Source: Psammoneis japonica (taxonomy: Eukaryota). From it: a DNA stretch of 64,000 bases. Positions within the stretch are counted from its first letter, which is position 1. Each line of letters opens with the position of its first letter. A model generated the notes under the pieces. That model saw only the letters and a list, made by a program, of their open reading frames with translations. It did no database searches and had not been told where the DNA came from. Location of the stretch: the NCBI GenBank assembly GCA_008632985.1, contig QPGO01000030.1:557135-621134 (forward strand), in the 5' to 3' direction. The translations under genes and the position numbers were made by a program. Positions 1,694-64,000 of this stretch are shown here, in pieces.

Positions 1694-4600
1694 GCTGCTC
1701 TTACTCTTTGAAGCTCTCATTCTTGCTCCTGTCCCGCCACGCTCCAAGTTTGGCCCTACCATTGCCTCCCGCTTGTCCCTCTTCCGCCGTGGCTGCATTC
1801 GCCAACTCTACCACGAAGCCTGCTCCCATGCGCCGCGCCTCTCCTCATCTTCCCCCGACTTTTCTGCTTCCGCCTGTTGCTGCTCCGCTCAAGTCTGCGC
1901 CGACGAAGATGACTTTCACTCGGCCTGCTCCAAGCTCACCTCTGCGCTTCCTGTTGCTGCCGTTACTCCTGAGCGCCTTCCTGCCATCCTCAAGCTCTAC
2001 CCTCCTCGCCTGCACCCCTCCGACCCACCTGATCCTCCTTCAACTCGCTCGGCCTCCTCCCTTCACAATGAGCCTGTTGAGCTCTCCTCCGATGCTCTTC
2101 TTTCCGCTCTCTCCAAATGTAAGCCTGGGACTGCTGCCGGTGTCTTTGCTGATTCTACCGACCTTTTCAAGTCCTGCGCCCTCCATTCTGCCAAAACCCC
2201 AACAGGTGTTGCTCAACGCCCCTGCTTGTCATCCTTTCGTGAGCTTGTCCTTCTTCTGCTCCATGGCTCCATTCCTTCCTCAGTCCATTCCTTATTTGCT
2301 TCGAACTACTTTGTCGCTCTGCATAAAGATGCCAGCGACCTCAACAAACTTCGCCCCATTGGCGTCGGCACTGCTCTTCGTCGCATTGCCGGCTCCGTCG
2401 TCATGACTCTCTTTGGTTCTGCATTTGCCGAATGCCTCCTCCCAGATGGCCAATTTGGCATTGGTGTCAAAGGTGGCCTCGATTATCTCATTCACTCTGC
2501 TCTTGCCAACATTGAACGACATCTTTCTTCTGCCGACTCTGCCAAGGCTCTTCTTCTTCTTGACCTCGTCAACATGTTCAACGAAGCATCCCGAGATGCC
2601 TGTCGACACGTTCTCACCTCCACCCCTGCCTTCCATCCTCTGCTTCCTTTTTTTGACCTTCTGTGTCAAAGTTCCAATGCATGTTGGCATCGCCGACCCG
2701 ATTCTTCCTGGGGCTCCTTTCTTCAAGAAGAGGGATTTGCCCAAGGATGCCCTCTCGGCCCTGTCTTCGCCAGCCTGGTCCTCTCTCTGGTTCTTCGTCC
2801 GATTAACCAAGAGCTTCAAGAACGTATCCCTGGCCGTTCCTCTGTCTCAGTTGGCTCCTACATTGACGATGCTCACGCTTTCCTTCCCCATTCTGTGGCT
2901 CCCATGGTTCCTTGAACGCTTCTCCGCCCTCGGTGCCCCCTGCGGAATCTCCCTCAACCTCCGTAAAACCAAGATCCTCACCTCCATTGCTGGTGTTAGC
3001 CCCATCCCTGCTCTTCCCCCTTCCCGCGCCGATTCTCTCCGTGCTGCACTTTCCTTCTTAAACCCCACCAATGACCCCTCTTACAACCCCGAACTCACCT
3101 CTGGTGTTCGCTTCCTTGGACAGCCCCTCGGCTCCCACGACTTCGCCACCTCTTTCCTTTCCGACACTTCCTCCACTCTCTCCGACAAAGTTGACATGCT
3201 TCTCACCCGTCTCCATGACAAACAAACCCAGGCTCAACTCTTCAAGCACTGTTTTGTTCCATCCTCTGCTCACCTCCTTGGAGCTGACTTCCACTGCAAC
3301 TTCGACCCCGACAATCCTCCCGACCCCTTTCTCTGGACCTCTCCGTTTCAAGATTTCCTCCTCACCGTTGCTCACCGCTTTCTACACTACGTCACTTCCT
3401 TCGCCGCTCCTTTTCCCGACCATTCTATTGCCATCGCCTTCCTTCCTGCCTCCTCAGGCGGGTTTGGTCTCCGGGACCCAACAGCTGCCGCCATTCCTTC
3501 CTTCTTGGTGTCGCTTCTCCGCTCGTTCCGCTTTGCTTCGCACGGTGTCAGCCTGCCATCTGGCGCTTCTGTTTCCCTTCCGCGCTGCTTTCGGCTCTCC
3601 CTGTCTTCCTGGTCCAACCCTCGCTCTTCCCTGCGACTCCACACGCTCTTCCACCGTTGTGCTCCCGTTCTGGCTTCCGCCTCTGCCCTTTCCTCTTCTT
3701 CCTTGGCCACCCTGGTTAAATCGGCCACTCTCCCCGGCCTGGCCCGTCGTCTCCACCATGAACATCAGCAACAAGCAGTGACCTCCATCCTTGCTAACTC
3801 ATCTTACGACGTGCAATCTTCACTCCCCTCATTGCTGTCTCCGCTTACAAGCCTCCCTCTTCATTCCTTCTCTCGTCGCTTTCCAAGCTCCCGCCTTTCT
3901 TCGGACGCCTGCGCTGTTGCCGCCCTTCGTAAGCTTCGTCTCCCCATCCTTCCTCCGTCCCTTGTCAACACTCCCTGTCCCTGTGGCCATGCCATTCTGG
4001 ATGCCTGTGGTGATCATGCCTTTTCTTGCCGCCGTGCTCACAAGTCCAAGCTTTCCAATGGTCTCCGTGACGCTGTTTTCATCCTTGCCCAAACTTTGGG
4101 TCCTCTTGCAGAGTTCTGTCGATCCCCCAATGACGTTCATCTTGAACCCACCAACCTGCTCCCCACCCGCCTGCTTCTCCGTCCCGCCAATGTCGGCATT
4201 TCAATCCCCCCTCCCGCCTCCCTTTCTGCTCCCTCCCGCCATCACTGCATTGCAGTGGACGTCACCGTCCCTCAAGCTTCCTCTCGCCCTCCTCCAGGTC
4301 TGCCTGCCCCCTCTTCTCCTGTCTCAACTGAGGCACACCACTCGAGCGCGAGATTGAAGTTTCTTGGCCCCTCCACTTCCTCTGCCGATGGATCCCTTGT
4401 TGTTTCTTCGCTTGACAACAATGGCATCTTCCTGCTCCCCTTCACTGTAGATCACCTTGGTGGTCTCGGCTGCTTTGCCCACCGCTTGCTCTTTGGTTCT
4501 GCATCCCCCTCCGTCTGCTCTCAGCCCAAGCCACCCTGGTCCTCTTCCTCTGACCTTCGTCACTCCGATGCCTCCTGCTCCGCCTTCCTCTGCGCTTTGT

Positions 4601-21610: not shown

Positions 21611-22139
21611 CTTTTGGTTGCATGCAGACCTCCCAGTTGGGAGTTGGGGGTGGTTGATGTGGCAAATGTCGAAAGCGGAAATAAATCTTCCGGTGTCGGT
21701 GTCAAGCGGACCGCTGACAGAGTTCAAACATTCAAACATACATGGAAGGAGTAAGAACATTCCCTGCGAGAAATCGTCAAAAAATCAAAAAAAATCGCAC
21801 GCGCACGATTGAATTCGCCGTTTGACTCCACGCACAGTGCAGTACTGAGACTGTAGAGTGACCAGGAATGTTAAAAAACAGACCTGTTTTAACGGGATTG
21901 ATTCACTCGATTACAAGACCCATAATTTCATTAATGAATATAAAATATAAAGCCTCTCACGTGACTACAGCAACACGAAGTGGGCGGTCCTTCGAAAATT
22001 TTCTTTGTCGAAGAGGCATTTCCCCCTCTACCTGCAGTAAAGGCACCGTATTATGTTTAATTTCCGTTGACTGTGATTCTTTCATAACTGTTATTTTAAA
22101 TATTTTTTAAGGGTGGTCGGTTGCTACTTTTTTTAGCTC

Positions 22140-23020
22140 GAATTCGGCCGAACAGCTCGTGTTTTGCATGATTTTTCCTGAATTTCACCGTGCTTCACCG
22201 TGGTGAAAACAACAAGCCATAAGTCTGTGACGGAGGTGGTCCGTCTGCCAACTCTCATTTATTTTATGTTTGTTGTGTGTCAAAGATTGTGTGTGCATGA
22301 AAAGTTGGCAGACGGCAAACTGCGTTTTTGAGAAACATCGATGATTGTCATCATCGTCGTGCTTCGATCGCGGTGCTGATGGTTCTCGTTTTCATGCATG
22401 ATCGGGTGTGACTGTGAACAATTCTTGCATTCAAAAATAAACACCACAAAAAACCTCATTCAAATGCAACGGCAATTTTGGGACAAACGCGGGGATGACC
22501 CCCCTTGAAGATGTCCAAACCAAAATTCTAAAAACAGAATGAACGAGTTCATTGCTTGCATTGCCGACATGCATCGTTGCACATGTGTTTCAAAGTTGCA
22601 CGCAAGAAGCAAGAAACTGCAGCAGCACAATGATGCATGCCACCGGTGTCCCACTTTATGACGTGATGTCTCAATGATGCTTGCACCGATTTCTCCGTTT
22701 CTTTTTTCGATGTTGGGAGCAATTGCACAATGCACCCTGCTGGGTTGGTCTCGTTGTGTGTTGTCGAGAATTGTGGATTTCTGTTTTGTCCAAAAATCAC
22801 TCTCAGAACTGGCAAGTTAGACAGGTGCATTGACAACAGAATGAACGATCAAAGCATTTTTGACAACACTGAACACTTTTGACCAAACTGGCACAATGTG
22901 GCACCTTCAGTTGGGAGGTCAGTGGTTCAGCGGCGCCAACACATGACACATCATCTTCACCGAGATGATTGGGCGTGGGCAAATGCGTCTCAATCGTGTC
23001 TTCTCAGTCGGGCTCGCGAC
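22140..23020. repeat. TpA-depleted degenerate repeat/TE relic
   Basis: Only ~7 TpA seen, all in TAA/TTA; rich in TG/CA; no intact ORF. Confidence 0.55.
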
Positions 23021-23035
23021 CTCTAGCTGCTAGAG

Positions 23036-23773
23036 TGCAAGCAAAAAACCGGTCTGTCCTCTTCCGACCGGTCTGTCCTCTTGCAAGAGCAAACTGTGTA
23101 AAACCACTCTAAGAAAGGCTTCCCGTTGTTACACATGCAAACCCTGTCTGCTGGCATCGGTCAGAAGGTCAACAGAGATCTTTGCGAAAACAGCGGGCTA
23201 AAAGAGTGTTGCATCATGGCACATTGGGGGCCAAAAGCGGCACATCGCCATTTTCTAAGAAAAATCTACCGTTTGAGAATTTACACAGATTTTCTATCAT
23301 TAATTATCCTCATTGATGTATGTTTTTTAGATGTCCATTTCCAATTCGTGACAAATGCCTGCATACGAAATGCGAGTAATAAGGCAAAACAACAACGAAT
23401 GAGAGCTTATGGACCCGCATTATTCGATACGAGTGTGTATTATGGACTTGCCATTCTGCCCTTGCGAGAGATAATGGCTAAGCGATTGACGAAGGATGCA
23501 AAAAAAAACTGTGTAAATTTCTCGGTATGTTGCCACGTAGAAATCTACTGACGACCGGTCTGTCCTCTTGGAACGAAAAAAGGCCCTTCTTGCGATAGTA
23601 ACAATGGTGTTCAGAACCGTGAACCTGGCAAATACAGGCATAGGAGCACGTCAATTGACAATGTTAGAAGACGTAAGAAGCATTGCACAGTGAAAAGCGA
23701 ATCGATTTTGGAAACAAAATCGACTTTTACACAGATGCCAAAAGGCAGAGGACAGACCGGTTTTTTACTTGTA
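23036..23773. mobile_element. Non-autonomous TIR element (MITE), 27-bp TIRs, sub-terminal repeats
   Basis: Left TGCAAGCAAAAAACCGGTCTGTCCTCT (23036-23062); right, reverse-complemented, TACAAGTAAAAAACCGGTCTGTCCTCT (23747-23773). Internal GACCGGTCTGTCCTCTT at 23066 and 23553. TAGAG on both flanks (23031-35, 23775-79). Confidence 0.85.
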
Positions 23774-30777: not shown

Positions 30778-32649
30778 ATGGACGACTTGTTCAATCTTCT
30801 GTCGTCGTCTGCTCGCATTGATAAATCGAAACGTTCCAAGAAGCGTAGTCGCCCAGTACCTGTAGCGGCATCTTCAACTTCTTCAGTCGCTAGAAAACCT
30901 CAAAGCAATAGCAGTGATGATGAAAGTGACGATAGCTCTGTAGCAAGGAGTCCGCAGAAGATCGCATCTCGAGATCGTACTGGAAAGCGAGATTCATCGG
31001 AAGCCAAGCAACAACAGATTCATCGCGAGCAAATGGCTGCGTTCCGAAAGTCCATGTCGATCCGATTAGCGAACAAGCACGATCCAAATGTGCCTGACCC
31101 CGTGTCGTCCTTTGCTGAACTTGCGGCTCCGTCGTGGTGGTCCACTACTCGTGAATTTGAAACCATCCGACGAGCCATTGTGAACAACGTGGAACAGGGG
31201 AAATGGAAGGAGCCGACGCCCATTCAGATGCAAGCCATGCCCTCGCTTTTGGAGCGGCGGGACTTGATTGGAGCCGCACCAACAGGATCCGGAAAATCTG
31301 GAGCTTTCATCATTCCTTCACTATTAATCAGTAGCGTTTCTCACGACGTGTTTTACGCAACTCGAGCAACGTCGAAAACGAAATCAAAGAAACGCCCGGC
31401 CAAAAAGTTTTCTCGTGATGGAGAGATACGATGCCTCTTGTTGGCTCCTTCGCGCGAACTCGCTGCTCAGTTGTATCGAGAAGTGGAACGGCTTGGGATG
31501 GGGAAGCCAGGTGGACTTACCTCTCTGTTGCTCTCGAAATCGAACGCATCCCACGTCATTTCTGGTAGTGCCGGTGGGAAGAGCGGATTAGATGTACTTG
31601 TGACTACGCCGCTGAGGCTGGTTGATTGCGTCGAAAAAGGCCTTGATCTCCATTCCGTCAGGCTTGTTGTATTGGATGAGGCCGACCGGCTTCTAGATGC
31701 AGCTGACGGTAATCGTAACAAGCAAGCCATTGGAAACTCCGCCGACGAAGTTGCAACAGACGAAAACAATTCCGAAAAGAAACGAAAAGCAGATATAAAA
31801 GGAGGCGAGAAAGAGTCGGGATCATCACAATCGCAGTCATTTTTGGCGCAAATGGACACGATATTCAACGCCTTGCCCGCTACAGCTACTCGCTCTCTAT
31901 TCTCCGCCACGGTCACTCCGACTGTCAGGTCGCTTGCAGAATCAATATTGCGCAACCCCGTCGATGTTACAATCGCCGCCCCTGGAACCATTGGCGGGGC
32001 GAACAAAGATATTGATCAGGAATTGACGTTCGTGGGACGGGAGGAAGGTAAACTCCTGGCGATCCGGCAGCTCGTACTGAGAGGACAGCTCAAGCCACCA
32101 GCCATTGTGTTTGTTCAGAGCCAGGAACGAGCACAGGCGCTTTTCAGCGAACTCTTGTACGATGGCATACATGTAGATGTGATTCATGCTGGTCGATCGC
32201 GGTCTGCTCGTGACAATGCCGTCGCCAAGTTTAGACGTGGTGACACGTGGCTTCTCATTTGCACTGACCTTGTAGCTCGTGGCGTTGACTTTCGAGCGGT
32301 GAATATGGTTATCAACTATGACCTTCCTGCATCGGGAGTGACTTACGTTCACCGCATCGGCAGGACCGGACGAGCGGGTCGCAAGGGAAAGGCGATTACG
32401 CTTTTTACAGAAGCTGACTTTGAAAACTTACGAACCATCGCAAATGTCATGAAGTTGAGTGGTTGCGAAGTACCGAGTTGGATGCTCAACATGCGCCGGA
32501 GCAAGAAGAAAGGCAGCAACCCTCACAGAATGAAGATTGACACCACCCCATCGTATGACAGGAGGAAACGTTCCCATAAACAGCAAAGCATTCAAAACAG
32601 CAAGAAGAGGAAGCGAGAAATGGAGGGAAAGAGCCGGGTGGAAGAATGA
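30778..32649 (+). CDS. DDX52: DEAD-box RNA helicase DDX52/Rok1
   Basis: EPTPIQMQA, APTGSGKS, PSRELA, TTPLRL, DEAD, SAT, PPAIVFVQSQERA, ARGVDF, HRIGRTGRAG, IANVMKLSGCEVP. Confidence 0.93.
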   Translation: MDDLFNLLSSSARIDKSKRSKKRSRPVPVAASSTSSVARKPQSNSSDDESDDSSVARSPQKIASRDRTGKRDSSEAKQQQIHREQMAAFRKSMSIRLANKHDPNVPDPVSSFAELAAPSWWSTTREFETIRRAIVNNVEQGKWKEPTPIQMQAMPSLLERRDLIGAAPTGSGKSGAFIIPSLLISSVSHDVFYATRATSKTKSKKRPAKKFSRDGEIRCLLLAPSRELAAQLYREVERLGMGKPGGLTSLLLSKSNASHVISGSAGGKSGLDVLVTTPLRLVDCVEKGLDLHSVRLVVLDEADRLLDAADGNRNKQAIGNSADEVATDENNSEKKRKADIKGGEKESGSSQSQSFLAQMDTIFNALPATATRSLFSATVTPTVRSLAESILRNPVDVTIAAPGTIGGANKDIDQELTFVGREEGKLLAIRQLVLRGQLKPPAIVFVQSQERAQALFSELLYDGIHVDVIHAGRSRSARDNAVAKFRRGDTWLLICTDLVARGVDFRAVNMVINYDLPASGVTYVHRIGRTGRAGRKGKAITLFTEADFENLRTIANVMKLSGCEVPSWMLNMRRSKKKGSNPHRMKIDTTPSYDRRKRSHKQQSIQNSKKRKREMEGKSRVEE

Positions 32650-32747
32650 GCACGGCTGATCTACGAAGTTAGTCGTACAAAAACTTCGCAGCTAAGTTAG
32701 CTAGATTACCTTACCCCAAGCACAAACCTATGATTTATTCGAAGTTT

Positions 32748-35700
32748 TCAACGAAACGAATTACGGAAGTCGTCCACTTTCTGCCTCATCTGGCTTAAAT
32801 CTGAGTTGACCCTTGCAGCGACGTTCTTTTGTCGATCCTGTAGCGCCTGGACATGCTCATTAACAATGGCTGAACCCGACACTCCAGCCGTCGCACCTTT
32901 AAGGGCGGTAGCCGGGTCTAGTCCTATTTTCTCCAGCATCACGGCCTGTTCTGTCCGCTTCATTCCTTTCAAGGTCATAACTGTTTGTAAATCTAACGCC
33001 GACCCTCCGACCCATTGAACCTTGAAGACATCGATCAGGAGGTCATGGGGTGTACCGACTAGTTTCAAGAGAGTTTCAATCCTTTTGAATTGCTTCGACA
33101 CCATTTTCGTGTACATGGCCGGGGCAATCGTCGAAGCCACTGAGCCCGACTTTTTGGATGGAGTACTACTCGATGTAGCTGGCGCCGCTGCTTCCATGAC
33201 AGGCAATCTGAGAAGCAAAGTCTTCAAGTTGTACACATCAAGGAGGAGCTGCTGTGTGCCTGGTTCGCTAATGCGTTTCAACCGAATAAGATTGTCATAG
33301 TAGGCGGAGGTGAATGCGGTTGCAAACTTATCACAGAAATTGCGAAAGTATGAAGAAGGAACAATTCCCCTGATCGCAACGACGAATGGCTCAATCTCGT
33401 TACTAATGGATCGGACATAGGTGCTCTCTTCTCCAACCATGTCAAAAGATGCCCAATTTATACTGGTCATCATCTTGAACCCACTTTCGAGTCTATTTTC
33501 TAACCCAGAAACCAGGACGCGTAGGCTCTTCGCCGTCACATCGTGAAAGCTTTCTTGTTGAGTTGTCATGTCAATCTTGGCCTTGTAGTCGCTGTCAATC
33601 GTATCACGGATCAGGTCCTCCAATGCTTCGACCGTGTCTGCGCAATACTCGCACGTACTAATGACGTGACAAATAGTCACTTCTCCTCCCTGGGGAATCT
33701 TATACGTGGCATTCGCTCCAGATGCTACGTCTTGCTTCGCAAAAGATGAACTTACTCCAGCAATGCTGATTCCACCAGTCGTAGGATTTGGAAGTTTGCT
33801 CGAAAGCACCGTCGCGTACTTCTCCAAGGAGTCTTGGAAAGCGCGGAATAGCAAGAAGAAGGCATTTCCTTTGGTAAGCGCAGTGCACCGAGTGATGCTG
33901 CCCTTGATGTACACAAAGAGGCTTGTAGACGAAGTAAACACGGGGAGGTCTCCACGCGTGTCCACGTCTGTGCTTGAACTGGACTCTACAAGTTGCTCGT
34001 CCATGCTCTGCTCCTCTAGGGCAATGTAAGGAGTCATGTAGTTGTCAAAAGAGGAAGATGCCAATCCCATTAATGGTTGAACAGGTGCATCTTTCTTCGG
34101 AGCTCTACTTTCATCGGCGGCAGTGCCTGAAGAGCCAGCAAGTCTTTCCTGTTGCTCCTTTTCTTGTCTCTTATACTTCATACGAATACCTTCTGAGCTG
34201 ACGGCATCGATAGCTCTCCCTGATTCGTCAAACTCTAGAACCTCTCCTTGGTCTCCCCGGACAGGGGTGGACGCGTCACTTACAGAAGGCTTTCCTTCTT
34301 CGCTCGAGTCAACAAAAAATATCGTACCGTGCTCACGTTGGAGCCAAACTGTCATTTCTTTCTCAAACAAGATGGTTTTCTGCAACGCTTTGAGTAAAAT
34401 GGTTGCATTCCCGCTATCAGAATCCTTGTACGGGCCATCGAGCAACGCCAAGATATGTGCTCCAGTCTAAAAAAAGGAAACGGAAGAGACGATTGTTTCA
34501 TGTGAAAAACTGAAAGACCAGGAGAAAAAGATTGATGGATTCACTATACCTCTTCTAGAAAATGACATGTGATGGTATACTGCAGATTCCAGTACTGCGG
34601 GAAAACCTTAGGGAACTTCTCTTCCACATCTCTCAAGACTCTTCGAAACCATGCAAACCTTCTTTCGATTTGGTCAAGAGCATACGCTGGCTTGTCGTGA
34701 GCGCTGTTCTCTACGGAAGAGTCGCTTCGCTTGAAACTATTCGCCTTGACCGCCTTTGGTTTGGAGGATGCCGGAGCAAAAAGAGCACTGTAGGCTCTCA
34801 AATGGTCCTCACAAAAGTCAGACACAAACTTTTTCCGTGTATCTATGCCTAATGCGTCTAACAACAACGTGGCATCAGACATCACCTCGGGTGACATGGC
34901 CGGTGGGACAGCTTCCGCTTCATCTGGTTTATCATGAGTCGGTTTAGGGAGGAGAGAGCCAATGTCGTCTGGGTCGCTTCGTTCTCCCTGTTTCGAAGTC
35001 TTGGTACCGTTATTTTCCATCTCAAGAGCCTTGGAAAAACCAAAGCCTACCACACGAAAGCCCCGTACCAAACCCTTTCGCAGTTCTAATTGGAGATCCT
35101 TCACCTTTTGCCCCATAAGACGCATAGGCTCAACCTTGTGAGTGTAGGCATCAAAATGCTTGAGAAGTAGATGAATCGCGTCAACCAAATGAGATGCTGC
35201 TTTGTAATCAGGAAATGGCTTGTTAAGACAGGCTAATCTCAGCTGCTCCACAGCATGAACTAGCATGTGCAGTCGCTTCAGCGTCGTGATGGTCCTCTGA
35301 AGGTGCCGTTTGGCGCAATCCAGTCGCTTCATCTCCTTTGTAATTTCGAGAACGGCTCGTTCGCTCTGTGATGCCTTGTCTTGGACCAATCTTATGCGCT
35401 TTTCGAGCGACGCAACTGACGCCTTTGCTTCCTGCACGTGCCGACGCGTTGAATCTGCGGTCTCCGATTGACGTTGAAGAGCATTGGAGATGCGTTCGTC
35501 CAACAATTCCATCCTATCAGAAACAGCCGTTCTCACAGAAGGAAGCTGAGTCACCAATGCAGACTCAGTCGTATAATGCCTATTAAGAAAGTCAATAGGA
35601 TCTAGTGATACAGAAGACGGGGCGACTGCGGTGTCGGCATCTTCTGAGGAAGCGGCGACATTGGCAGCCGCAGCAACTGCCGCAGCGGCGGTTTCTCGAC

Positions 35701-35818
35701 TTGAAGTATACGCATCCAGTGAATCCAACAAAGAATCGGAATTTAGAGAAGGAACTCCGGGGCCTGTACCCGTGACTGAGTGGGCTGACGCCGCTGCGGC
35801 ATCAGCCGGTGGCGCCAT
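32748..35818 (-). CDS. VPS53: GARP complex subunit Vps53; intron 34549-34467
   Basis: DPIDFLN, ITKEMKRLDCAKRHLQRTITTLKRLHMLV, LDQIERRFAWFRR, ALQKTILFEKE, YFRNFCDKF, QQLLLDVYNLK. Confidence 0.93.
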
Positions 35819-56187: not shown

Positions 56188-57618
56188 TCACTCTATATCC
56201 ATGGGTTCGTCAGCATGACGGAACCACGGGTGGTTGGCAACCTCATCTAGCGAAAGTCGCAATCTGGGGTCAACTTGGAGCATACCCTGCAACAAGTCTA
56301 AAGCTTCGTCCGATAGCGTCACGCCCCAATCGTCAAGCAGCATTGTGAGTCCTTTTGTCATCCAATAGAACTGCGGGTCTGACTCGTGTGGTCGTTCATA
56401 GGATCGATTTCCACTGAGCATACAAAAGAAAATCGTTCCAATTGTCCAAATGTCCACTGCCTCAGCATCAAAGCTGTCCCTGTTTACGTAAATCTCTGGC
56501 GACATGTACGGCAATTTCCCGCAAGCACCCTGTGGCTTGAGCAGCCGGCGTGCGGTTCCTTTCGATATGTCAGTCACCGCGTTTGCCGGGCCATCCTTTC
56601 TAGAGTATGGTATTCGCAAACACATTCCCATGTCAATAATGAGACATTTCTTCTGTTTGTCAATCATGATGTTCTCCGGAGACAAGTCACGATGGCAAAT
56701 ACCAACACCGCGTTGTAGATGGCATAATCCAGCAACCATTTGCCGAAACCAATAGCGTGCCTTTGGTTCTGGCAGCTTTGGCGTTCTTTGCAAAAAGGCA
56801 AACAAGTCACCCGATCCACAGTAAGGCATAACAACATTGAGCTGGTTATTCTTGCCATCGAAAAGTACTTCCAAGCATCCCAACACATTTGGGTGATCGT
56901 TACCAATGAGTTGCATTGCAGCTATTTCTTTCAGGGGGTCCTCGGCGTGCCTGTTCTTCATTCGTTTCATTCTATCGCCATAATTGACTTTTACTGCAAC
57001 ATACTCTGTTGTTAGCTGGAAAACAATGTCTTCTTCTTCGTCGTCTTCATCTTCGCTGTCGGTGCTGTCATTATCGTCATTCTCGGCATCCGATTCGTTG
57101 TCCTTCACGCAGCGCTTCAGTACGTGGCATATTTCAACATGCCCCATGATTGTCTTCATGGTTGCGTGCTGAGGTATGGGAAAGTAAGCCCGCTCAACTC
57201 TATTCAGTCCGCCTTCCTCGCTTCCGTATTCGCGTGAAAAGTCGTGAAACAACACCCGCTCAGCTTGGTAAACTCGTTGGGTGAGATCGTTGCAATAGCA
57301 TACAGTAGCTCGCTGCCCTCTTTGAAACACCGGAGAAGGAAAAGCAATGGGATCTGCGGGTCTCCCAGCCTCACATACATCATCCCAAGGACGACGATCT
57401 GCCCGTGCTGTAGCAGACGGTTCCGCGGCATTTGCAGCCTCCTCTTTGCCGCGACTGCTGTCTAACGATGTGCTGGAGAGGGTCAGTGTTTCGAGCTGCA
57501 TGTTCATGTCACCGTTGCTGCTGCCGTATCTTTCTTCAGATTCAAAACGCATCATGTGAGGGACCCCACCCTGTCCATCCGATGACTCTTCCCGGGCATA
57601 ACCGTCGTCGCGAGCCAT
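56188..57618 (-). CDS. Ser/Thr protein kinase (CAMK-like group)
   Basis: VAVK, EDPLKEIAAM, HRDLSPEN, IIDMGM, GKLPYMSPE, DIWTIG, DPRLR. Confidence 0.93.
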   Translation of the reverse strand: MARDDGYAREESSDGQGGVPHMMRFESEERYGSSNGDMNMQLETLTLSSTSLDSSRGKEEAANAAEPSATARADRRPWDDVCEAGRPADPIAFPSPVFQRGQRATVCYCNDLTQRVYQAERVLFHDFSREYGSEEGGLNRVERAYFPIPQHATMKTIMGHVEICHVLKRCVKDNESDAENDDNDSTDSEDEDDEEEDIVFQLTTEYVAVKVNYGDRMKRMKNRHAEDPLKEIAAMQLIGNDHPNVLGCLEVLFDGKNNQLNVVMPYCGSGDLFAFLQRTPKLPEPKARYWFRQMVAGLCHLQRGVGICHRDLSPENIMIDKQKKCLIIDMGMCLRIPYSRKDGPANAVTDISKGTARRLLKPQGACGKLPYMSPEIYVNRDSFDAEAVDIWTIGTIFFCMLSGNRSYERPHESDPQFYWMTKGLTMLLDDWGVTLSDEALDLLQGMLQVDPRLRLSLDEVANHPWFRHADEPMDIE

Positions 57619-57734
57619 GTTCAGTGAAAGTGCCTTTTTGTGTCCGTCTCACACCGACCGTATCTCTCTGCTCTCAACGCGTTTGCTGATCGGACGGGTC
57701 TAACGTATGATATCACGTATTCTCAAAGCATAAA

Positions 57735-60700
57735 CGAAAACAGAGGCGTCTTGCGGCCACCCTCTCGGTGAATCCAATGTCTTTGTTTGAATGCTGCCCA
57801 AGCTTCGTGGTTGCGCAGTGTTCTGATCTTGCGGTCTTGCGGCGCGGGTTGCAATGCGCAATGCGATGAACCGTGCATGTGCCTCCGAGGCATTTTGTTG
57901 CCGTTTGCCACGGAGGCAGGCAGACTAACTGTGGGTAAACAAACTCAACGCGGCAACGCTGGCGGAGCGAGAACCAATGTCCCTAAAACAGACAAAAGCA
58001 CAATCCCACATTTTCGCATCGCACTTCAAAGCCGCGAAACCTCAACACTCCCCAGCTCCAACACACGACAACAAGAAACCAGAAGCAGGGAGTTAGAAAT
58101 TGGACTCTGTTGTTGTCTCAGGAGCTCAGCTTTTGGCAGTGAAAAATGTGGTGTGAAAAAAGAGCCATGATCAGTCCACAAAAAGACCACTGGCGGGGCA
58201 CTCTTGCACAAGGAGCTCCTCACAAGCTGACAGAAAGCAAGACAAACGACCAGAACGGAAAGGCACCATGCAAGAAATCAACATTGCCACAAACACTGTT
58301 GCAAGTGCATCAACTTGCCTGTCAGAAAAGTGGGTGCTCCTCACTTGCAATGAAAGCACCGCGGACCAAGCTGCTGCTCTGTGGAGCTTTTGTGCTCTCT
58401 CTGCTGACATGAATGCTTTTTTTAACAGAGTCATTTGTGGCAAATGGAAACATGGGCAAAGGCCTCGAAAATGCAGGTTTTGCATTGAGTGTGGATGATC
58501 CACACATTGTGGCTCCACAAGAAGATGTGGTGAGATGGGAAGACGGAGAAGGAGCAGCGCCGCTCTCACTTCTTTGTTGAGTGCTGCTGGCAATGGTCAA
58601 GAGCATGGCTTGGGGCTCTGTGCATTTGCCTGCACCATCACAAGCACAACACTCTCCCCTTTTTCCTTTGCTGCCTGGAGGCATTTTCAGTTTGCTGTGA
58701 CATGTGGCCAATTTGTGCCAACAGCACAGGGCGTGTGCAGAGGGGAAAGCACCCTCCCTGAGGGGGCACCGCTCTGGCACTGCAATGTGGTCTTTTGCAA
58801 ATGCACTTCTGCAATGAATTGAGTGACCCCCAGCAACAAAACCACCACAACTCCACACAACCCATTTGATGAGCACCATCTGAGCTGCTGGCTGCTGCTG
58901 TTCTTCCAGAAGAGGTCAAGGGGACATCAAGACAGGTGAGGGGGTGGCTGCTGCAGAGGAGCCATGAGAGATGGAGCAACTCATTGTTGAGATGCACCTG
59001 CTGGCAAAAGTTTGTTGGGAAGCCCCAGGTGCAAAGCTGGACATGCAATGCCTCAAACTTTCTGGGCAGGGCTGCCAGCACACCTGCTTGTGTGGCATTC
59101 TTCAAACATCCCGGGACCACCAGCTAACCTGTTGCTGCTCTGATGGAGCATCACATTTGTGGTGACAGACCAAGAGTTGAGCAGGGTTCTTGGTCAGAGA
59201 AACTTTGCTCCAGCCCAGCACCAAATGTGCAAAGATTGGTTTGGAGCCTTGGCCATGCAGACACCAGGGGGGCACCCACCTTCAGGAAGCTTTGGCAACT
59301 CAACAGGTGGATCATTCAGCCCTGAAAGTTGTGCAGGAAAATTGTTCAGGCCAGCTGCAAAGCCATTGATCACCAATCTGTTTGTCCATCTGTGCTTGAA
59401 TTTCAACTTCTTGGGAAACCAGTTGAAATGACATCTGAACAAAAATGTTGTTCTTTGCCGTGCAAAGTGAAATGCATTTGATCAGGCCACATTTCAACTG
59501 ATGCCTTCCTGCAAAGTCACTTGGCTCCTGTCACCCTCTTGCATGGCATTGTGCACATTTCTGCACAATTGTGTTTTTTTTCACACAACAAAACAGCCAT
59601 GGCTGTTGAGATGTTTTGGAACGACTCCCATTGAAATGGTCAGCAGGTTTGTTCTGACAAGCAGGAACCTCTGAAACTGGAAAATCCTGAACATGCCAGC
59701 AGCATGGTGCCCCCCACGACAATGTGGAAAACCTGACAACACAGCACAGGCCATGCACTCAGAGATGTCTGCCACAAAAAGCCACGAGAGGTGTGTGGGA
59801 AAAGATGCCAGAATCACTGGTGATGTGGTTGGGGGAGAAGAGCAAGTCTCCACACAACTGGAGAGCTGCATTGTGGCATTGTGAGAGCCATCTCAAAAGT
59901 TGGCACCAACAAGATGAGGGTTGTTGCCTGTCCTCCTCAGACAACTCACAAGCACAAAAAGTTTTTGATTTGCAAGAAACTCTGGGTGGAAATGCACTGG
60001 CTTGAAAATTCTTCACATTGAGCTGGAAGGAAGTGCAGCAGGAGCAGCAATGTTGCTGGCACCTGGAGAGAGAGGGAGTGCAGGACTTGGGTGGCTCTCC
60101 AGCCCAGCTCAGCAACTGTGGTCTGGGAAATGGTGCACGAGAAGCATCGCGCTTTTGGGGGCATCAAATGTTGGTCACTGACTTGCCATCTTCAGAGCGA
60201 ACACTTAAAAAGCAAGAGCTCTTGCACGTTGTCATCCAGGTGGCCAAGTTGAAGGGACGCATCCACATGCCCATCAACACAACCACTCAACCCCTCATTT
60301 TCCCTGCCTTGCAAGCAAGGTGGTCGACACAAAATCTTGAGTCAGCCCAAGAGAACAAGACACATGACAGGCTTCAAGAGGCAGCAGCTCGGCCAGAGCA
60401 GCTTCAGCCTTCAGCGGTGAAAACAGCATGATGGGAAAGAGGGCAGGTTGATTCAAAGGACAACTGTCACCACATTGAAGCTGTCCCACACAGCTTCTTG
60501 TGCCACGTGCTGTGTTGTGAGAGATTGTGGCGGTGGTGTGCCATGGTGGCGGCGCTCTTTGACGATGCTCCATGCACCCCCACCCACCAGCAGGGTTGTG
60601 GATTCCTGGGACAAGCAGGCATGGCTGAGCTTAGAACACGAATTGATTTGGTTGCTTGCTTCTTGCTTGGGTGATTCCAGATGTTTTGTTTTTGATTTTT

Positions 60701-60760
60701 GGATCGGCAAGCTTTGCCAGTTAGCACAGCCATCAGTTGTGTGTAAGCAGGGAAGTCGGT
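57735..60760. repeat. Hypermutated (TpA- and CpG-depleted) tract containing gene-derived fragments
   Basis: About 3 TpA in 58100-60620 by manual count; contains an inverted copy of 62703-62906. Confidence 0.8.
58083..58307 (+). pseudogene. Inverted, mutated partial copy of the 5' end of the 62075-62869 methyltransferase gene
   Basis: Aligns to the reverse complement of 62703-62906 (LEIGLCCCLRSSAFGSEKCG vs LEIGLYYCLMSSAFGSEVCG). Confidence 0.85.
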
Positions 60761-61076
60761 TTGACCATCCGCCCGCCCAAGCGAAATAAACATCAATGCA
60801 GTTGAACATCGTTGATCTCTACATACGTCTGCGTGCACGTAAAATTCAGTAATGGGGGATTCCATTTGTAGCGCACGGTACATTTTCTACGCTTGCCAGG
60901 TGAAATTCTGAAGAATGTGAGAAAGCATGCTGAACTCGTGTGAAGGCACGACGCAACATCAAAAGATCAGTGCAAGATCTCATCGTTCCCGGTAATGTTC
61001 AGTGTGGAACACATTAAATCACAATTCTCGTTGCTATCTTTGGCTTCAATCTCAGGAGAAGGATTTGAGTGACAGC

Positions 61077-61952
61077 ATGCGTGCTGAGGTTTTTTCTTTT
61101 GCATTTCTGGTCCTTGTTTCTTCAAGGTGCGACGCTTTTGTTTCCCCCGCGATGACACGATGCTCTCGTGTCAAGGAGTCGTCTTATTTATTTGGAATGA
61201 AGAAAGATGATAGCGAAGGCCAATTTGATCTCGAGGCAGCTCGTCGACGCTTGGAGGCCATGATGGGAGGAGATGAGACATCGAGCGGTCAGGCAGTTCA
61301 GGAGCGTACAAAATCTCATGCTGTTCAGAGCAAACAGACAGCGCCCCCTCCGTTGACGGCGATTGCGCGAGAACGGCGACTTGCAGAAATGCAGCTACTA
61401 TCACAGCTTAATGATAGTGACGATAGCCTTTCTGATCTATGGTCGCTTTGGTTTGGCGAGCGCGGTGCTGAGGCAGCGGTCGAGTTGATGCGTTGCGAAG
61501 AACTCGCTGCAGAGGGTCCGCGCGGATACGACGAAGTAGAAGACCGTTTGAGAAAGCTCATCAACGAACATGGTGTGCACTGGGCCGAACCCGTAAATCG
61601 ACTTGCCACTCTCTTGTACCTACAGGGACGTCTAGAGGAAAGCAAGGCTCTTTGCAAAACTGTCCTGGATGTCAAACCGTGGCACTTTGGAGCGCTATCA
61701 GGAATTGTCCTGGTCTGTGCCGCAATGGGTGACGCCGCTGCTGCTCGACAATGGGCTGCCCGTAGACTTCCTCCTATTCAACCCGCCGGAAACAATCGCA
61801 GACGAAAGGATTGGGTTCAGCACTCACTGGAGGAAGCTCGTGAGTCGCTTGCCGAAGCAGAAGAGCAGTTGCGGGAAGACTTTGGAGCACCTGACGTGTT
61901 GCCGTCATCAAAAGACACTTCCGACGAAAAAGACGAGGATTCATGGCAGTGA
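61077..61952 (+). CDS. Plastid-targeted TPR-containing protein
   Basis: Signal peptide + CDA|FVSP; WAEPVNRLATLLYLQG..VKPWHFGALSG TPR motif. Confidence 0.85.
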   Translation: MRAEVFSFAFLVLVSSRCDAFVSPAMTRCSRVKESSYLFGMKKDDSEGQFDLEAARRRLEAMMGGDETSSGQAVQERTKSHAVQSKQTAPPPLTAIARERRLAEMQLLSQLNDSDDSLSDLWSLWFGERGAEAAVELMRCEELAAEGPRGYDEVEDRLRKLINEHGVHWAEPVNRLATLLYLQGRLEESKALCKTVLDVKPWHFGALSGIVLVCAAMGDAAAARQWAARRLPPIQPAGNNRRRKDWVQHSLEEARESLAEAEEQLREDFGAPDVLPSSKDTSDEKDEDSWQ

Positions 61953-62074: not shown

Positions 62075-62869
62075 TCAAGATATATCTGAATGCGTGTTCA
62101 GCCAAATAGCAGTATTTCGTCCTTCAAATGGCAAAGTCTCGACAACGATTCGGCTATTCTTCTTGGCTAGATATTGGCAGAATTGTTCGTGCGTTCTCAC
62201 CGGTACTAGTTTCCCATTTTGTTCGATTCGTCGTTGAGAAAACAAATTTGGAAACACGCAACAGGGGACCACCACAAAAGGTTTATCGTGCTTCAGGGCC
62301 GCGTCGACGATGGCTTCAGTAGCCCCATCAGCATGCATTCCAACCAGCAGCGAGGCGTCTTGTATCGCTTGCTTCAGTTCAACAGAATTCTCTACCGTGT
62401 GTTCATCAAAGGTCATAACGAGTTGACGAAATCGTTCATTCACCACCTCTTGACAAAAATCGGAATTGTTGCGAGTCTGTCGTTCGAATCGATCTTGCCA
62501 CTTATTTGGGAGTTTGGGCAAGACGAGAGTTTCAAAACAGCGCGCAACATCTGCTTCTCGTGGGTCCACCATGACGACACTTAGACGATGGCACAAGGAC
62601 AATCGTGCCGCGAGCTCCCCCTTGCCACCCGCCACATCTAAAACATGCTTCGGAACAGTGCCGCTCTTGACCTCTGTCAAGTGAGGAAACGTCCTCAACA
62701 ACCACTTGCAAAAGTGTTTGTGGCGATGTTGATTTCTCGCACCGTGCCTTTTCCGTTCCGGTCGTTTGTTCTGCTTTCTATCGGTTCGTGAGCCCTCTGA
62801 AGGAGAAGCCGTATCCTTGATCTTTGGTTCTTTTGCGCCACATACTTCACTGCCAAAAGCTGAACTCAT
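62075..62869 (-). CDS. SAM-dependent methyltransferase-like protein
   Basis: VLDVAGGKGELA, VMVDPR, LVGMHADGATEAIVD, FVVVPCCVFP, LPFEGRN. Confidence 0.85.
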   Translation of the reverse strand: MSSAFGSEVCGAKEPKIKDTASPSEGSRTDRKQNKRPERKRHGARNQHRHKHFCKWLLRTFPHLTEVKSGTVPKHVLDVAGGKGELAARLSLCHRLSVVMVDPREADVARCFETLVLPKLPNKWQDRFERQTRNNSDFCQEVVNERFRQLVMTFDEHTVENSVELKQAIQDASLLVGMHADGATEAIVDAALKHDKPFVVVPCCVFPNLFSQRRIEQNGKLVPVRTHEQFCQYLAKKNSRIVVETLPFEGRNTAIWLNTHSDIS

Positions 62870-63059
62870 GAGACAATAGTAGAGTCCTATTTCCAACTCC
62901 CTGCTTGGCTACTTGACGTCCGGTGGTCGGTGGATGTTATTCTACCTTGGCATTCCGCACTCCAAAACCCCAAATTGCGGTACAATTCTACGTGTCTCTA
63001 GTAATGGACGACGGCAAGACGCAATTTCAAAGAGGAGCTAGCTGCCTGAAGGTGTACAA

Positions 63060-64000
63060 GGAGAAGACTGATGAAACAGATGATGACCATTGGACTGCTC
63101 TTGAAGGAGTGGACGAGTGTGACACCACGCTTGCATTGAAAAAGCAGGAAGAAGCTGGAGAGGAGCGCGATCCAAGCAGCCTTGAAGAACACATGGGCGG
63201 ACTGGCTCGGAAAGAAGACAATGCAGGGGGGTTGCGATGAGGGTTTGGGAATGGTGGCGTGTTCACCATGAGATGCATTTGTCCATGTCTGAAGCTGCAC
63301 ATCCAGCTGGTGGTCCTCGTGCAACTTTCCAGTGCTTCAGTCAAGCAAGTGAGTTTTTTCTAAGCTCAACAAGCACGTTGTTGAGACAGCCCAGTGCAAC
63401 ACGTTGCACGATGCCACTTTGTTGTGCATCATCTTTTTTCTCATTTGCACAAGGGATGTGATGTCAATCAAGACCATTGGCGGTGCTGCAAGAGAAGCCC
63501 AGAGTCAAGAGAGCTCTTTCTCAGCTCGAGTGGGCTCGCACGATGCAATTTTGTTGTGTTGTTTTTTCTCATTGGCAGAAGGGGCATGATGCAGTGGCAA
63601 CACACAGTGCAGCAGCAATGTGATTGACATGGTGCAGCAGCAATGTGATGTGCCGGCAATGCAATGCAGCAAAATGCAATCAGGAAACAATGAACGGTGT
63701 CATTGCTGTGCCACTGGTGATGAAGCACCACTGCACCAAACCTGGCACTGCACCACGTGCACTCTACGCAGTGCGCACTCTGCGCAATGCATTGCCCACT
63801 CAGCTCACAGAAATTCCTGTTTTGCACACTGCGCAATGAGCCTGTGCCTGTGTGCACCACATGTGCAGCATGTGCCATTTGTGCAATGGTGTGGCGATGC
63901 AAAAAAATGTTCATTGCACGTGGGTTGTTTGAAGCTTCACTGGACGGCTGTGTCTCTTTGTCTGTGTGACCATGGAGAGAGCAGTGATGAGGTGTTTGGA
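63060..64000. repeat. Second hypermutated TpA-depleted tract (runs off the window end)
   Basis: 2 TpA seen in ~940 bp (63361, 63765); TG/CA-rich; internal ~55-bp degenerate direct repeat 63405-63463 / 63538-63591. Confidence 0.75.

Follow-up and report, generated by a model that had tools for sequence, protein, structure and literature searches.

Targeted mutation of an organism's own genome is known mainly as a change from C to T, as in repeat-induced point mutation (RIP), a premeiotic process dependent on RID and DIM-2, in AID/APOBEC editing and in the decay of CpG. Here we describe a locus in the diatom Psammoneis japonica at which a piece of the 5′ end of a methyltransferase gene has lost its TpA dinucleotides, while the intact gene 4.4 kb away has kept them. 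The DNA analysed (the window) comprises 64,000 nucleotides of contig QPGO01000030.1 (C30:557135-621134), and the genome searched amounts to 91.4 Mb. We regard as probable an explanation in which the eroded piece is a stub left at the gene's ancestral site by a local inversion and the erosion of TpA is targeted to chromatin blocks.

The closest described process is the TpA hypermutation of integrated nucleocytoplasmic large DNA virus (NCLDV) and virophage DNA in the rhizarian alga Bigelowiella natans (Mettrop et al., bioRxiv 10.64898/2026.01.13.699255). Mutation-accumulation lines of this alga display a live TA→TG/CA spectrum, and in a subset of them the rate per generation is raised ∼1000-fold; the enzyme proposed is an ADAT2-like deaminase, and the process is read as a defence against foreign DNA (10.64898/2026.01.13.699255). 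In a literature search that covered subscription journals thinly, this 2026 preprint was the only account of an A/T→G/C process at TpA, and no paper on TpA erosion in diatoms was found. Inversions formed by staggered breaks in Drosophila carry inverted duplications at their breakpoints, at one breakpoint only in 12 of 18 cases (Ranz et al., PMC1885836). In the diatom Phaeodactylum tricornutum, CG methylation of transposons is DNMT5-dependent (PMC9998398).

Results

The eroded piece aligns with the reverse strand of the gene (58083-58307 with 62906-62703) at 73.6% identity over 227 columns (E 1.1e-31); the piece lacks 1 bp and is 22 bases longer in its middle part, and weak similarity may reach back to 58062 (Table 1). 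A reading of the letters alone (the sequence-only reading) had reported this inverted pair with six substitutions, all of which are present. It had also counted five TpA lost in the aligned blocks, three of them by TA→TG/CA, and this is borne out: in the two well-aligned blocks the stub retains 0 of 5 TpA (two now TG, one CA, one TT and one AA), compared with 115 of 143 other dinucleotides (Fisher p=4e-4). CpG is likewise depleted, with 7 of 9 lost, six by transition, against a background of 10 changes in 132 other sites. The gene encodes a Methyltransf_32 protein with named homologues from pennate diatoms and retains its TpA and CpG, as had been claimed: the shared segment has 6 TpA in 204 bp, an observed/expected ratio (o/e) of 0.46 compared with 0.40 in the rest of the coding sequence.

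Because homologues begin at Met 62869, the alignment start in 22 of 24 of them, the first 37 aligned bases are probably 5′ untranslated region or promoter and not codons. These bases hold three of the five TpA and the site that had been reported as a 'YY→CC' change, where the bases have indeed changed but are probably not read as codons. Further into the gene, the stub is altered at residues that are invariant or near-invariant among homologues (G56, F66 and W69) and a CpG change falls in an Arg codon of a conserved motif. Within this motif the stub is, as judged by homologues, the derived member. The homologue alignments took 24 of 724 and 15 of 31 homologues.

Gene order indicates where the stub stands. 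The synteny sample consisted of metagenome contigs, from which 80 of 157 related loci were kept, 28 of them with at least 1.5 kb upstream of the gene. An orthologue of the protein kinase gene lies head-to-head with the methyltransferase gene in 5 of these 28 loci (L173, L175, L180, L217 and L223), and since the DNA of the five kinases is 64-71% alike, they represent different organisms. Measured from residue 74 of the kinase, the RHGARN motif of the methyltransferase lies at a distance of 608, 612, 784, 863 and 2432 bp in the five loci; in the window, the site of that motif in the stub lies at 862 bp. The TPR-like gene is tail-to-tail with the methyltransferase gene in six related loci. In L175 the order is villin-headpiece gene region, kinase, methyltransferase, TPR and proteasome subunit, which is the order and orientation of the window except that the methyltransferase-TPR block is reversed, and L172 agrees on the proteasome (right) flank. 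The right end of the reversed block is precisely the segment shared with the stub, which stops 20-40 bp short of the transposon-like end at 62945. Short-read contigs bridge the stub at either end and also run from domain 1, the erased block around the stub, to the transposon end, so the arrangement is not an obvious assembly error. Since the gene order of relatives shows the methyltransferase-TPR block inverted in this lineage, the eroded piece reads as the 5′ stub at the ancestral site and the live gene as the one that moved. The sequence-only reading had taken the piece for a derived copy of a donor, which this gene order does not support.

In L172, L178, L179 and L180 the neighbours of the methyltransferase-TPR pair match window positions 30778-35806 and the window-equivalent stretch 90734-94584, which points to several further local rearrangements in the region. 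The longest run without vulnerable TpA in relatives was 259 bp or less (syntenic loci of at least 5 kb), a comparison of little weight on short gene-centred contigs.

Domain 1 is one of many such blocks. An erased block was defined as a run without TpA except in TTA/TAA contexts, and contig C30 holds 44 of them, covering 210 of its 670 kb, with normal DNA alongside. Dinucleotide frequencies are normal over most of the window, whereas in the core at 58060-60700 the o/e is 0.03 for TpA and 0.19 for CpG (elsewhere in the window 0.56 and 1.02) and CpA/TpG stands at 1.76. At domain edges TpA loss ends sharply and CpG thins across ∼500 bp, and in the former upstream region of the methyltransferase gene the TpA front runs ahead of CpG loss. 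The dispersed repeat within domain 1 lies in TpA-poor DNA in 29 of 29 fetched matches (40 of 69 candidates scored). The stretch 58300-59320 is erased as well, although the genome search, of limited sensitivity, gave no second match for it. Domain 2 is followed by the proteasome-subunit gene; it contains long inverted arms that are ∼70% alike (window-equivalent 64027-65900 and 81249-82461) and fragments of long terminal repeat (LTR) retroelements, and is possibly a single large element with terminal inverted repeats.

The direction of change cannot be fixed by the focal pair alone. Alignment with orthologues, proposed as a check in the sequence-only reading, identified the derived member in the conserved motif and reached none of the TpA sites: 0 of 80 related loci align outside the motif, which has no TpA. 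The direction claimed there is instead settled by LTRs. Six within-element LTR pairs differ at 48 sites, of which 47 are TA transitions and one is AA→AG, with no transversion, and among the 13 closest of 24 LTR matches, on which the spectrum counts are based, there are 10 of 20 TpA sites at which CA stands in some copies where others have TG. In a full-length Copia element (C30:285461-291636) flanked by a 5-bp target duplication, the right LTR is identical to both LTRs of an element on C199; the left LTR, which lies at 175 bp from an erased block, carries nine changes, eight of them TA→CA/TG, and has kept 11 of 11 CpG. At one site four close LTR copies read TG, and three of these four, two of them from one element, have the tandem change TAA→TGG; the hit Copia LTR carries such a change, as does an element on C69. 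A host gene (C30:385977-386537) and two eroded copies of a portion of it together with its upstream region (C30:223617-224318 and C17:136141-136556) include four TpA sites that read CA in one copy and TG in the other. We conclude that the TpA changes run TA→CA/TG.

A second host gene presents a similar picture. An eroded inverted 5′ piece of a conserved diatom gene of unknown function lies 600 bp from the intact gene (C30:90199-90343 and 90942-91076). Each of its 5 aligned TpA has undergone a transition, 7 of 8 CpG are gone, and the piece may be another inversion stub. Residue Y24 of this pair was considered as a polarity marker and rejected, as it is not conserved among homologues. Several further pairs were noted. 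One eroded copy of the host gene at C30:385977-386537 and the donor itself each adjoin a member of a ∼2-kb repeat family, which suggests capture by that element. An eroded inverted copy of the stretch between SnoaL-like and RSN1_TM genes (C30:230913-231149, compared with 295265-295032) keeps 2 of 14 TpA. At C30:65645-68811, LTR-like direct repeats of ∼240-300 bp include a left repeat that is TpA-eroded with CpG kept, and a TpA-rich stretch of 2.1 kb survives there between two erased blocks. A miniature inverted-repeat transposable element (MITE)-like element at window 23038-23771, with 28-bp inverted ends and normal TpA, lies beside an erased stretch (22126-23024), and its eroded copy at C30:528163-528852 keeps 3 of 31 TpA.

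Pairing of homologous sequences is unlikely to account for this pattern. Homology alone is no trigger, because long duplicates keep TpA in both copies: this was so for 25 alignments of at least 1 kb and at least 80% identity in four independent groups, among them two intact open reading frames (ORFs) that are inverted, 4.3 kb apart and 95% alike. Among LTR pairs, both LTRs are hit in three of six, one in two and neither in one. In these comparisons position in a block and time spent there appear to predict erosion; copy number does not. The proposal that the process marks one copy or one chromatin domain is supported in that only one member of the focal pair is eroded and the target, with 44 blocks and with duplicates intact in both copies, behaves as a DNA domain and not as a pair of homologues, but its stronger form, that only one copy is hit, does not hold as a rule. 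A repeat family of ∼1.4-2.8 kb has seven copies on C30 (near 60400, 210700, 224700, 272000, 350000, 386800 and 567000) that are 82-94% alike with normal TpA in all, and is an old repeat escaping erosion.

Table 1 Coordinates of features at and around the locus (window positions)
Feature	Position	Strand	Remarks
Protein kinase gene	56188..57618	-	Putative ancestral head-to-head neighbour of the methyltransferase gene
Domain 1, TpA-erased block at the left breakpoint	57719..60820		TpA o/e 0.06, CpG 0.32
Former upstream region of the methyltransferase gene	57735..58060		25 CpG remain vs 3 TpA, all 3 in TAA
Surviving TpA reading CA in X1	57936..57937		Contig comparison
Eroded 5′ stub of the methyltransferase gene	58083..58307	+	∼37 bp upstream, then codons 1 to ∼56; at the proposed ancestral site
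Start codon position in the stub	58120..58122	+	Reads AGG
Surviving TpA reading TG in X1	59125..59126		Another A>G 10 bp off at 59116, not TpA
Dispersed repeat within domain 1	59330..59640		At least 44 other genome matches
Surviving TpA reading TG in X1	60206..60207		Contig comparison
TPR-like gene, second gene of the inverted block	61077..61952	+	Tail-to-tail with the methyltransferase gene; TPR_19 match below cut-off
Intact Methyltransf_32 (PF13679) gene, 264 aa	62075..62869	-	Normal TpA and CpG; probably moved by inversion
Live-gene segment common to the stub	62703..62906	-	6 TpA (3 upstream of ATG, 3 silently changeable), 10 CpG
End of multi-copy transposon-like element (unclassified)	62945..63500	+	Lies 76 bp upstream of the live start codon; marker of the right breakpoint
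Domain 2 start, TpA-erased block of 20 kb	63056..64000		TpA o/e 0.04; ends at window-equivalent 83044

Six vulnerable TpA per 204 bp, as in the live segment, are ordinary outside domains (median 5) and occur in 0 of 974 windows inside them. In the shared segment all three coding TpA persist although a silent change is open to each, and the same is true of 14 of 17 elsewhere in the gene. Protein-level selection does not explain the spared TpA, as far as codons show, because these could change silently and the other three precede the ATG; selection on the short upstream region, or against the spread of silencing, is possible. The sequence-only reading had offered selection on the gene as an alternative and erosion of its synonymous TpA as a check; at the protein level the alternative fails, and the synonymous sites have not eroded. 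Nearness to repeats is not decisive either, because the live gene stands untouched ∼150 bp from the front of the 20-kb domain 2. The transposon-like end that lies between the two has internal deletions compared with its relatives and keeps TpA over its first ∼110 bp (6 TpA); terminal TpA are likewise retained in several other copies at ends that face normal DNA. The element may supply promoter sequence to the live gene. An ORF-like stretch at 63004-63240 was rejected as a host gene, being part of the multi-copy element.

Between 56000 and 63075, four differences separate the window from the short-read contigs of run X1, and three of them fall at surviving TpA (Table 1). These represent 3 of the 12 surviving TpA in domain 1, compared with 0 of 133 outside (p=4e-4). 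Survivors in the domain include the TpA at 57926, 57936, 57984, 58094, 58423, 59125, 60206 and 60632. All three that differ are in TAA, the context in which survivors collect; each fresh reversion would fall in this context in 43% of cases. The differences suggest ongoing TpA activity, and are a hint only.

Elsewhere in the window, positions 2308-4448 are GC-rich and strongly skewed, with a TpA o/e of 0.19 and CpG almost normal, and may be low-complexity coding sequence and not an erased block.

Discussion

We propose the following origin for the locus. The ancestral order, displayed by relatives, would have been kinase (leftward), methyltransferase (rightward), TPR (leftward) and proteasome subunit (rightward). 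A local inversion would then have flipped the 2.2-kb methyltransferase-TPR block and duplicated ∼200-225 bp of the 5′ end of the gene at the left breakpoint, as happens in staggered-break inversions; a break driven by a transposon is another possibility. Both breakpoints are now filled with repeat debris, and the stub lies within a block in which TpA has become TpG/CpA on both strands and CpG has become TpG/CpA more slowly, the latter probably because methylated CpG decays there in the ordinary way. The TpA process would act on silenced blocks of any origin, spread to the edge of active genes and stop there, and would need neither foreignness nor a paired homologue.

Several observations weigh against this explanation. 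The kinase is not seen upstream of the gene in 23 of the 28 loci with a long upstream flank, and the ancestral order rests on five loci together with the matching place and orientation of the stub. A duplicated stub at the right breakpoint (the TPR end) was not found, nor was a partner of the element end at 62945 found in domain 1 or domain 2, where erosion could mask one. Two of the five TpA losses in the stub are transversions, and the stub has a TpA at 58094, passed over in the sequence-only reading, where the gene reads TG; this TpA is in the resistant TTA context and may be a survivor or a new change. By design, all of the 25 intact long duplicates lie outside the domains. X1 may come from the sample used for the assembly, and its differences are unpolarised and could be heterozygous sites or assembly errors. 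The silenced and active states of blocks and genes are those we infer from the DNA, and a search of the genome for deaminases gave ordinary families only.

If the mutator instead acted everywhere near repeats, and selection removed lineages in which the gene had been hit or silenced, selection would set the boundary. The live gene fits this, being untouched although a transposon-like end lies 76 bp away and a 20-kb block has its front at ∼150 bp; selection against silencing spreading into a needed gene is possible, and three of the six TpA in the live segment are in the short upstream region, which may be functional. Yet the silently changeable coding TpA remain in the gene, young non-functional repeat copies outside domains keep their TpA, and in Bigelowiella the confinement was observed in mutation-accumulation lines, which experience minimal selection (10.64898/2026.01.13.699255), so that we consider this account unlikely. 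Still less probable is a RIP-like pairing that recognises the duplication and mutates one arm or the linker. The copies are close and inverted, with domain 1 between them, and a DIM-2-dependent RIP route in Neurospora mutates the single-copy linker of close repeats (10.1101/344036); here, however, half of the linker (the TPR gene and the rest of the methyltransferase gene) has been left alone, TpA is preserved in both members of duplicates that are longer and more alike, and the hypermutable region of Bigelowiella is single-copy (10.64898/2026.01.13.699255). RIP also makes TpA from CpA in both copies, and at ∼204-225 bp the focal pair is under its 400-bp limit (PMC3017866). The pair is for this reason a weak test of the contrast with RIP drawn in the sequence-only reading, which is settled by the other pairs in the genome; the intact long duplicates already largely refute pairing.

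A different objection is that the stub came from a paralogue or a lost donor, in which case its differences would not all postdate the duplication. Alignment is poor over the middle ∼50-70 bp, where the stub has 22 additional bases, and genome searches can miss diverged matches: one DNA search missed a known eroded copy and one missed the gene. However, this middle corresponds to an N-terminal region of freely varying length in homologues, and the stub is located at the place that the orthologue occupies in relatives. Queries of the genome with the DNA of the gene and of the stub, made in line with an earlier suggestion to look for closer donors, each matched only these two places, and the lack of a closer donor is still telling because such a donor is easier to find than a diverged one. 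Paralogues are at most 42% identical in amino acids, in the catalytic part only. In transition-tolerant alignments, neighbouring genes included, no homology was found beyond ∼58062-58307 (5′ score 18 with a null mean of 17.7, 3′ score 34 with a null mean of 36). A likeness of 58013-58038 to a transposon end was discarded as being at chance level. A paralogous or lost donor is scarcely credible.

The chemistry is the least certain part of the inversion and block-targeting explanation. Deamination to inosine of the A in 5′-TA-3′ would be the most likely route, at roughly even chances, and is ranked first because the spectrum is so narrow; error-prone synthesis resembling that of polymerase eta comes second, at perhaps half that weight, thymine modification is a rather doubtful third, and any other chemistry is a slim prospect. 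Polymerase eta has an A>G bias at WA that is strongest at TA. Mismatch repair could draw such a polymerase to methylated blocks, where G would be placed opposite T at TA, or a modified T could be read as C; the targeting would then be the same with another chemistry. The tandem TAA→TGG changes, the two X1 A>G changes 10 bp apart, one outside TpA, and the loss of TpA and CpG in the same blocks are consistent with this, but the spectrum of LTR-pair differences, free of transversions, is narrower than expected, and we judge another chemistry under the same targeting to be a minority possibility, though a serious one. A Tet_JBP search of the genome gave no match, as did its controls, and so says little on thymine modification. 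Nine PF00383 matches include TadA-like and ADAT2-like genes, assigned by eye and Pfam; these are common tRNA enzymes, so their presence is uninformative. A tandem two-domain dCMP-deaminase-like gene is found with equal scores on C41:505477-506590 and C317:55748-56795, as a duplicate or on allelic contigs. We tentatively suggest, at somewhat less than even chances, that a chromatin-guided editor of adenine in double-stranded DNA serves as a general eraser of silenced DNA and not as an anti-foreign defence, creeping ahead of CpG decay, halting at active genes and still being active; the stub of a native gene behind a native promoter would be among its targets.

The locus amounts to a natural experiment, in which two sequences were identical at the time of the inversion; the dead one has stayed at the native site and the other is alive in a new place. 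Neither host origin nor a native position protects DNA, and the question moves from the recognition of foreign DNA to which chromatin state is edited. The few surviving TpA and the promoter-side front offer resequencing targets for establishing whether the process runs. Such erosion also makes annotation overlook old duplications and transposons, and dates based on LTR divergence are distorted by it.

Compared with known systems, the reversal of a block relative to L175/L172, the inverted duplication of a unique gene piece at one breakpoint, abutting the end of the reversed block, and the decay of the spare piece resemble the staggered-break inversions of Drosophila. Those are of chromosome scale (PMC1885836), whereas here the block is 2.2 kb, repeat debris lies in both breakpoints and a transposon-driven origin is possible. 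By analogy with Phaeodactylum, DNMT5 methylation would be a diatom route to methylated, repressed repeat blocks with CpG decay; it would explain CpG loss only, and the available portion of that account includes no TpA change (PMC9998398). Like RIP, the process consists of dinucleotide-specific transitions that destroy repeats and dead gene copies and can spread into single-copy DNA (PMC3017866, 10.1101/344036). RIP, however, makes TpA from CpA/TpG, hits both copies and in N. crassa requires 400 bp or more at 80% identity (PMC3017866), whereas here TpA is lost, long duplicates are intact and erosion follows position.

The likeness is greatest to Bigelowiella, with which the locus shares TA→TG and TA→CA transitions (47 of 48 LTR differences, and 3 of the 5 TpA lost in the older stub), regional confinement, independence of a second copy and long-term TpA depletion with an excess of CpA/TpG in clusters. 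The live NCLDV region of that rhizarian is only partly depleted (Rho 0.45), while in this diatom, a stramenopile, loss is near-complete over 210 of the 670 kb of one contig and CpG decay follows in the same blocks. The targets in Bigelowiella are viral or foreign (10.64898/2026.01.13.699255); here a native host sequence at its likely ancestral site has been hit, within a block that does hold repeats. What this locus adds is the synteny placing native DNA at a native site, the exclusion of protein-level selection and the differences at surviving TpA.

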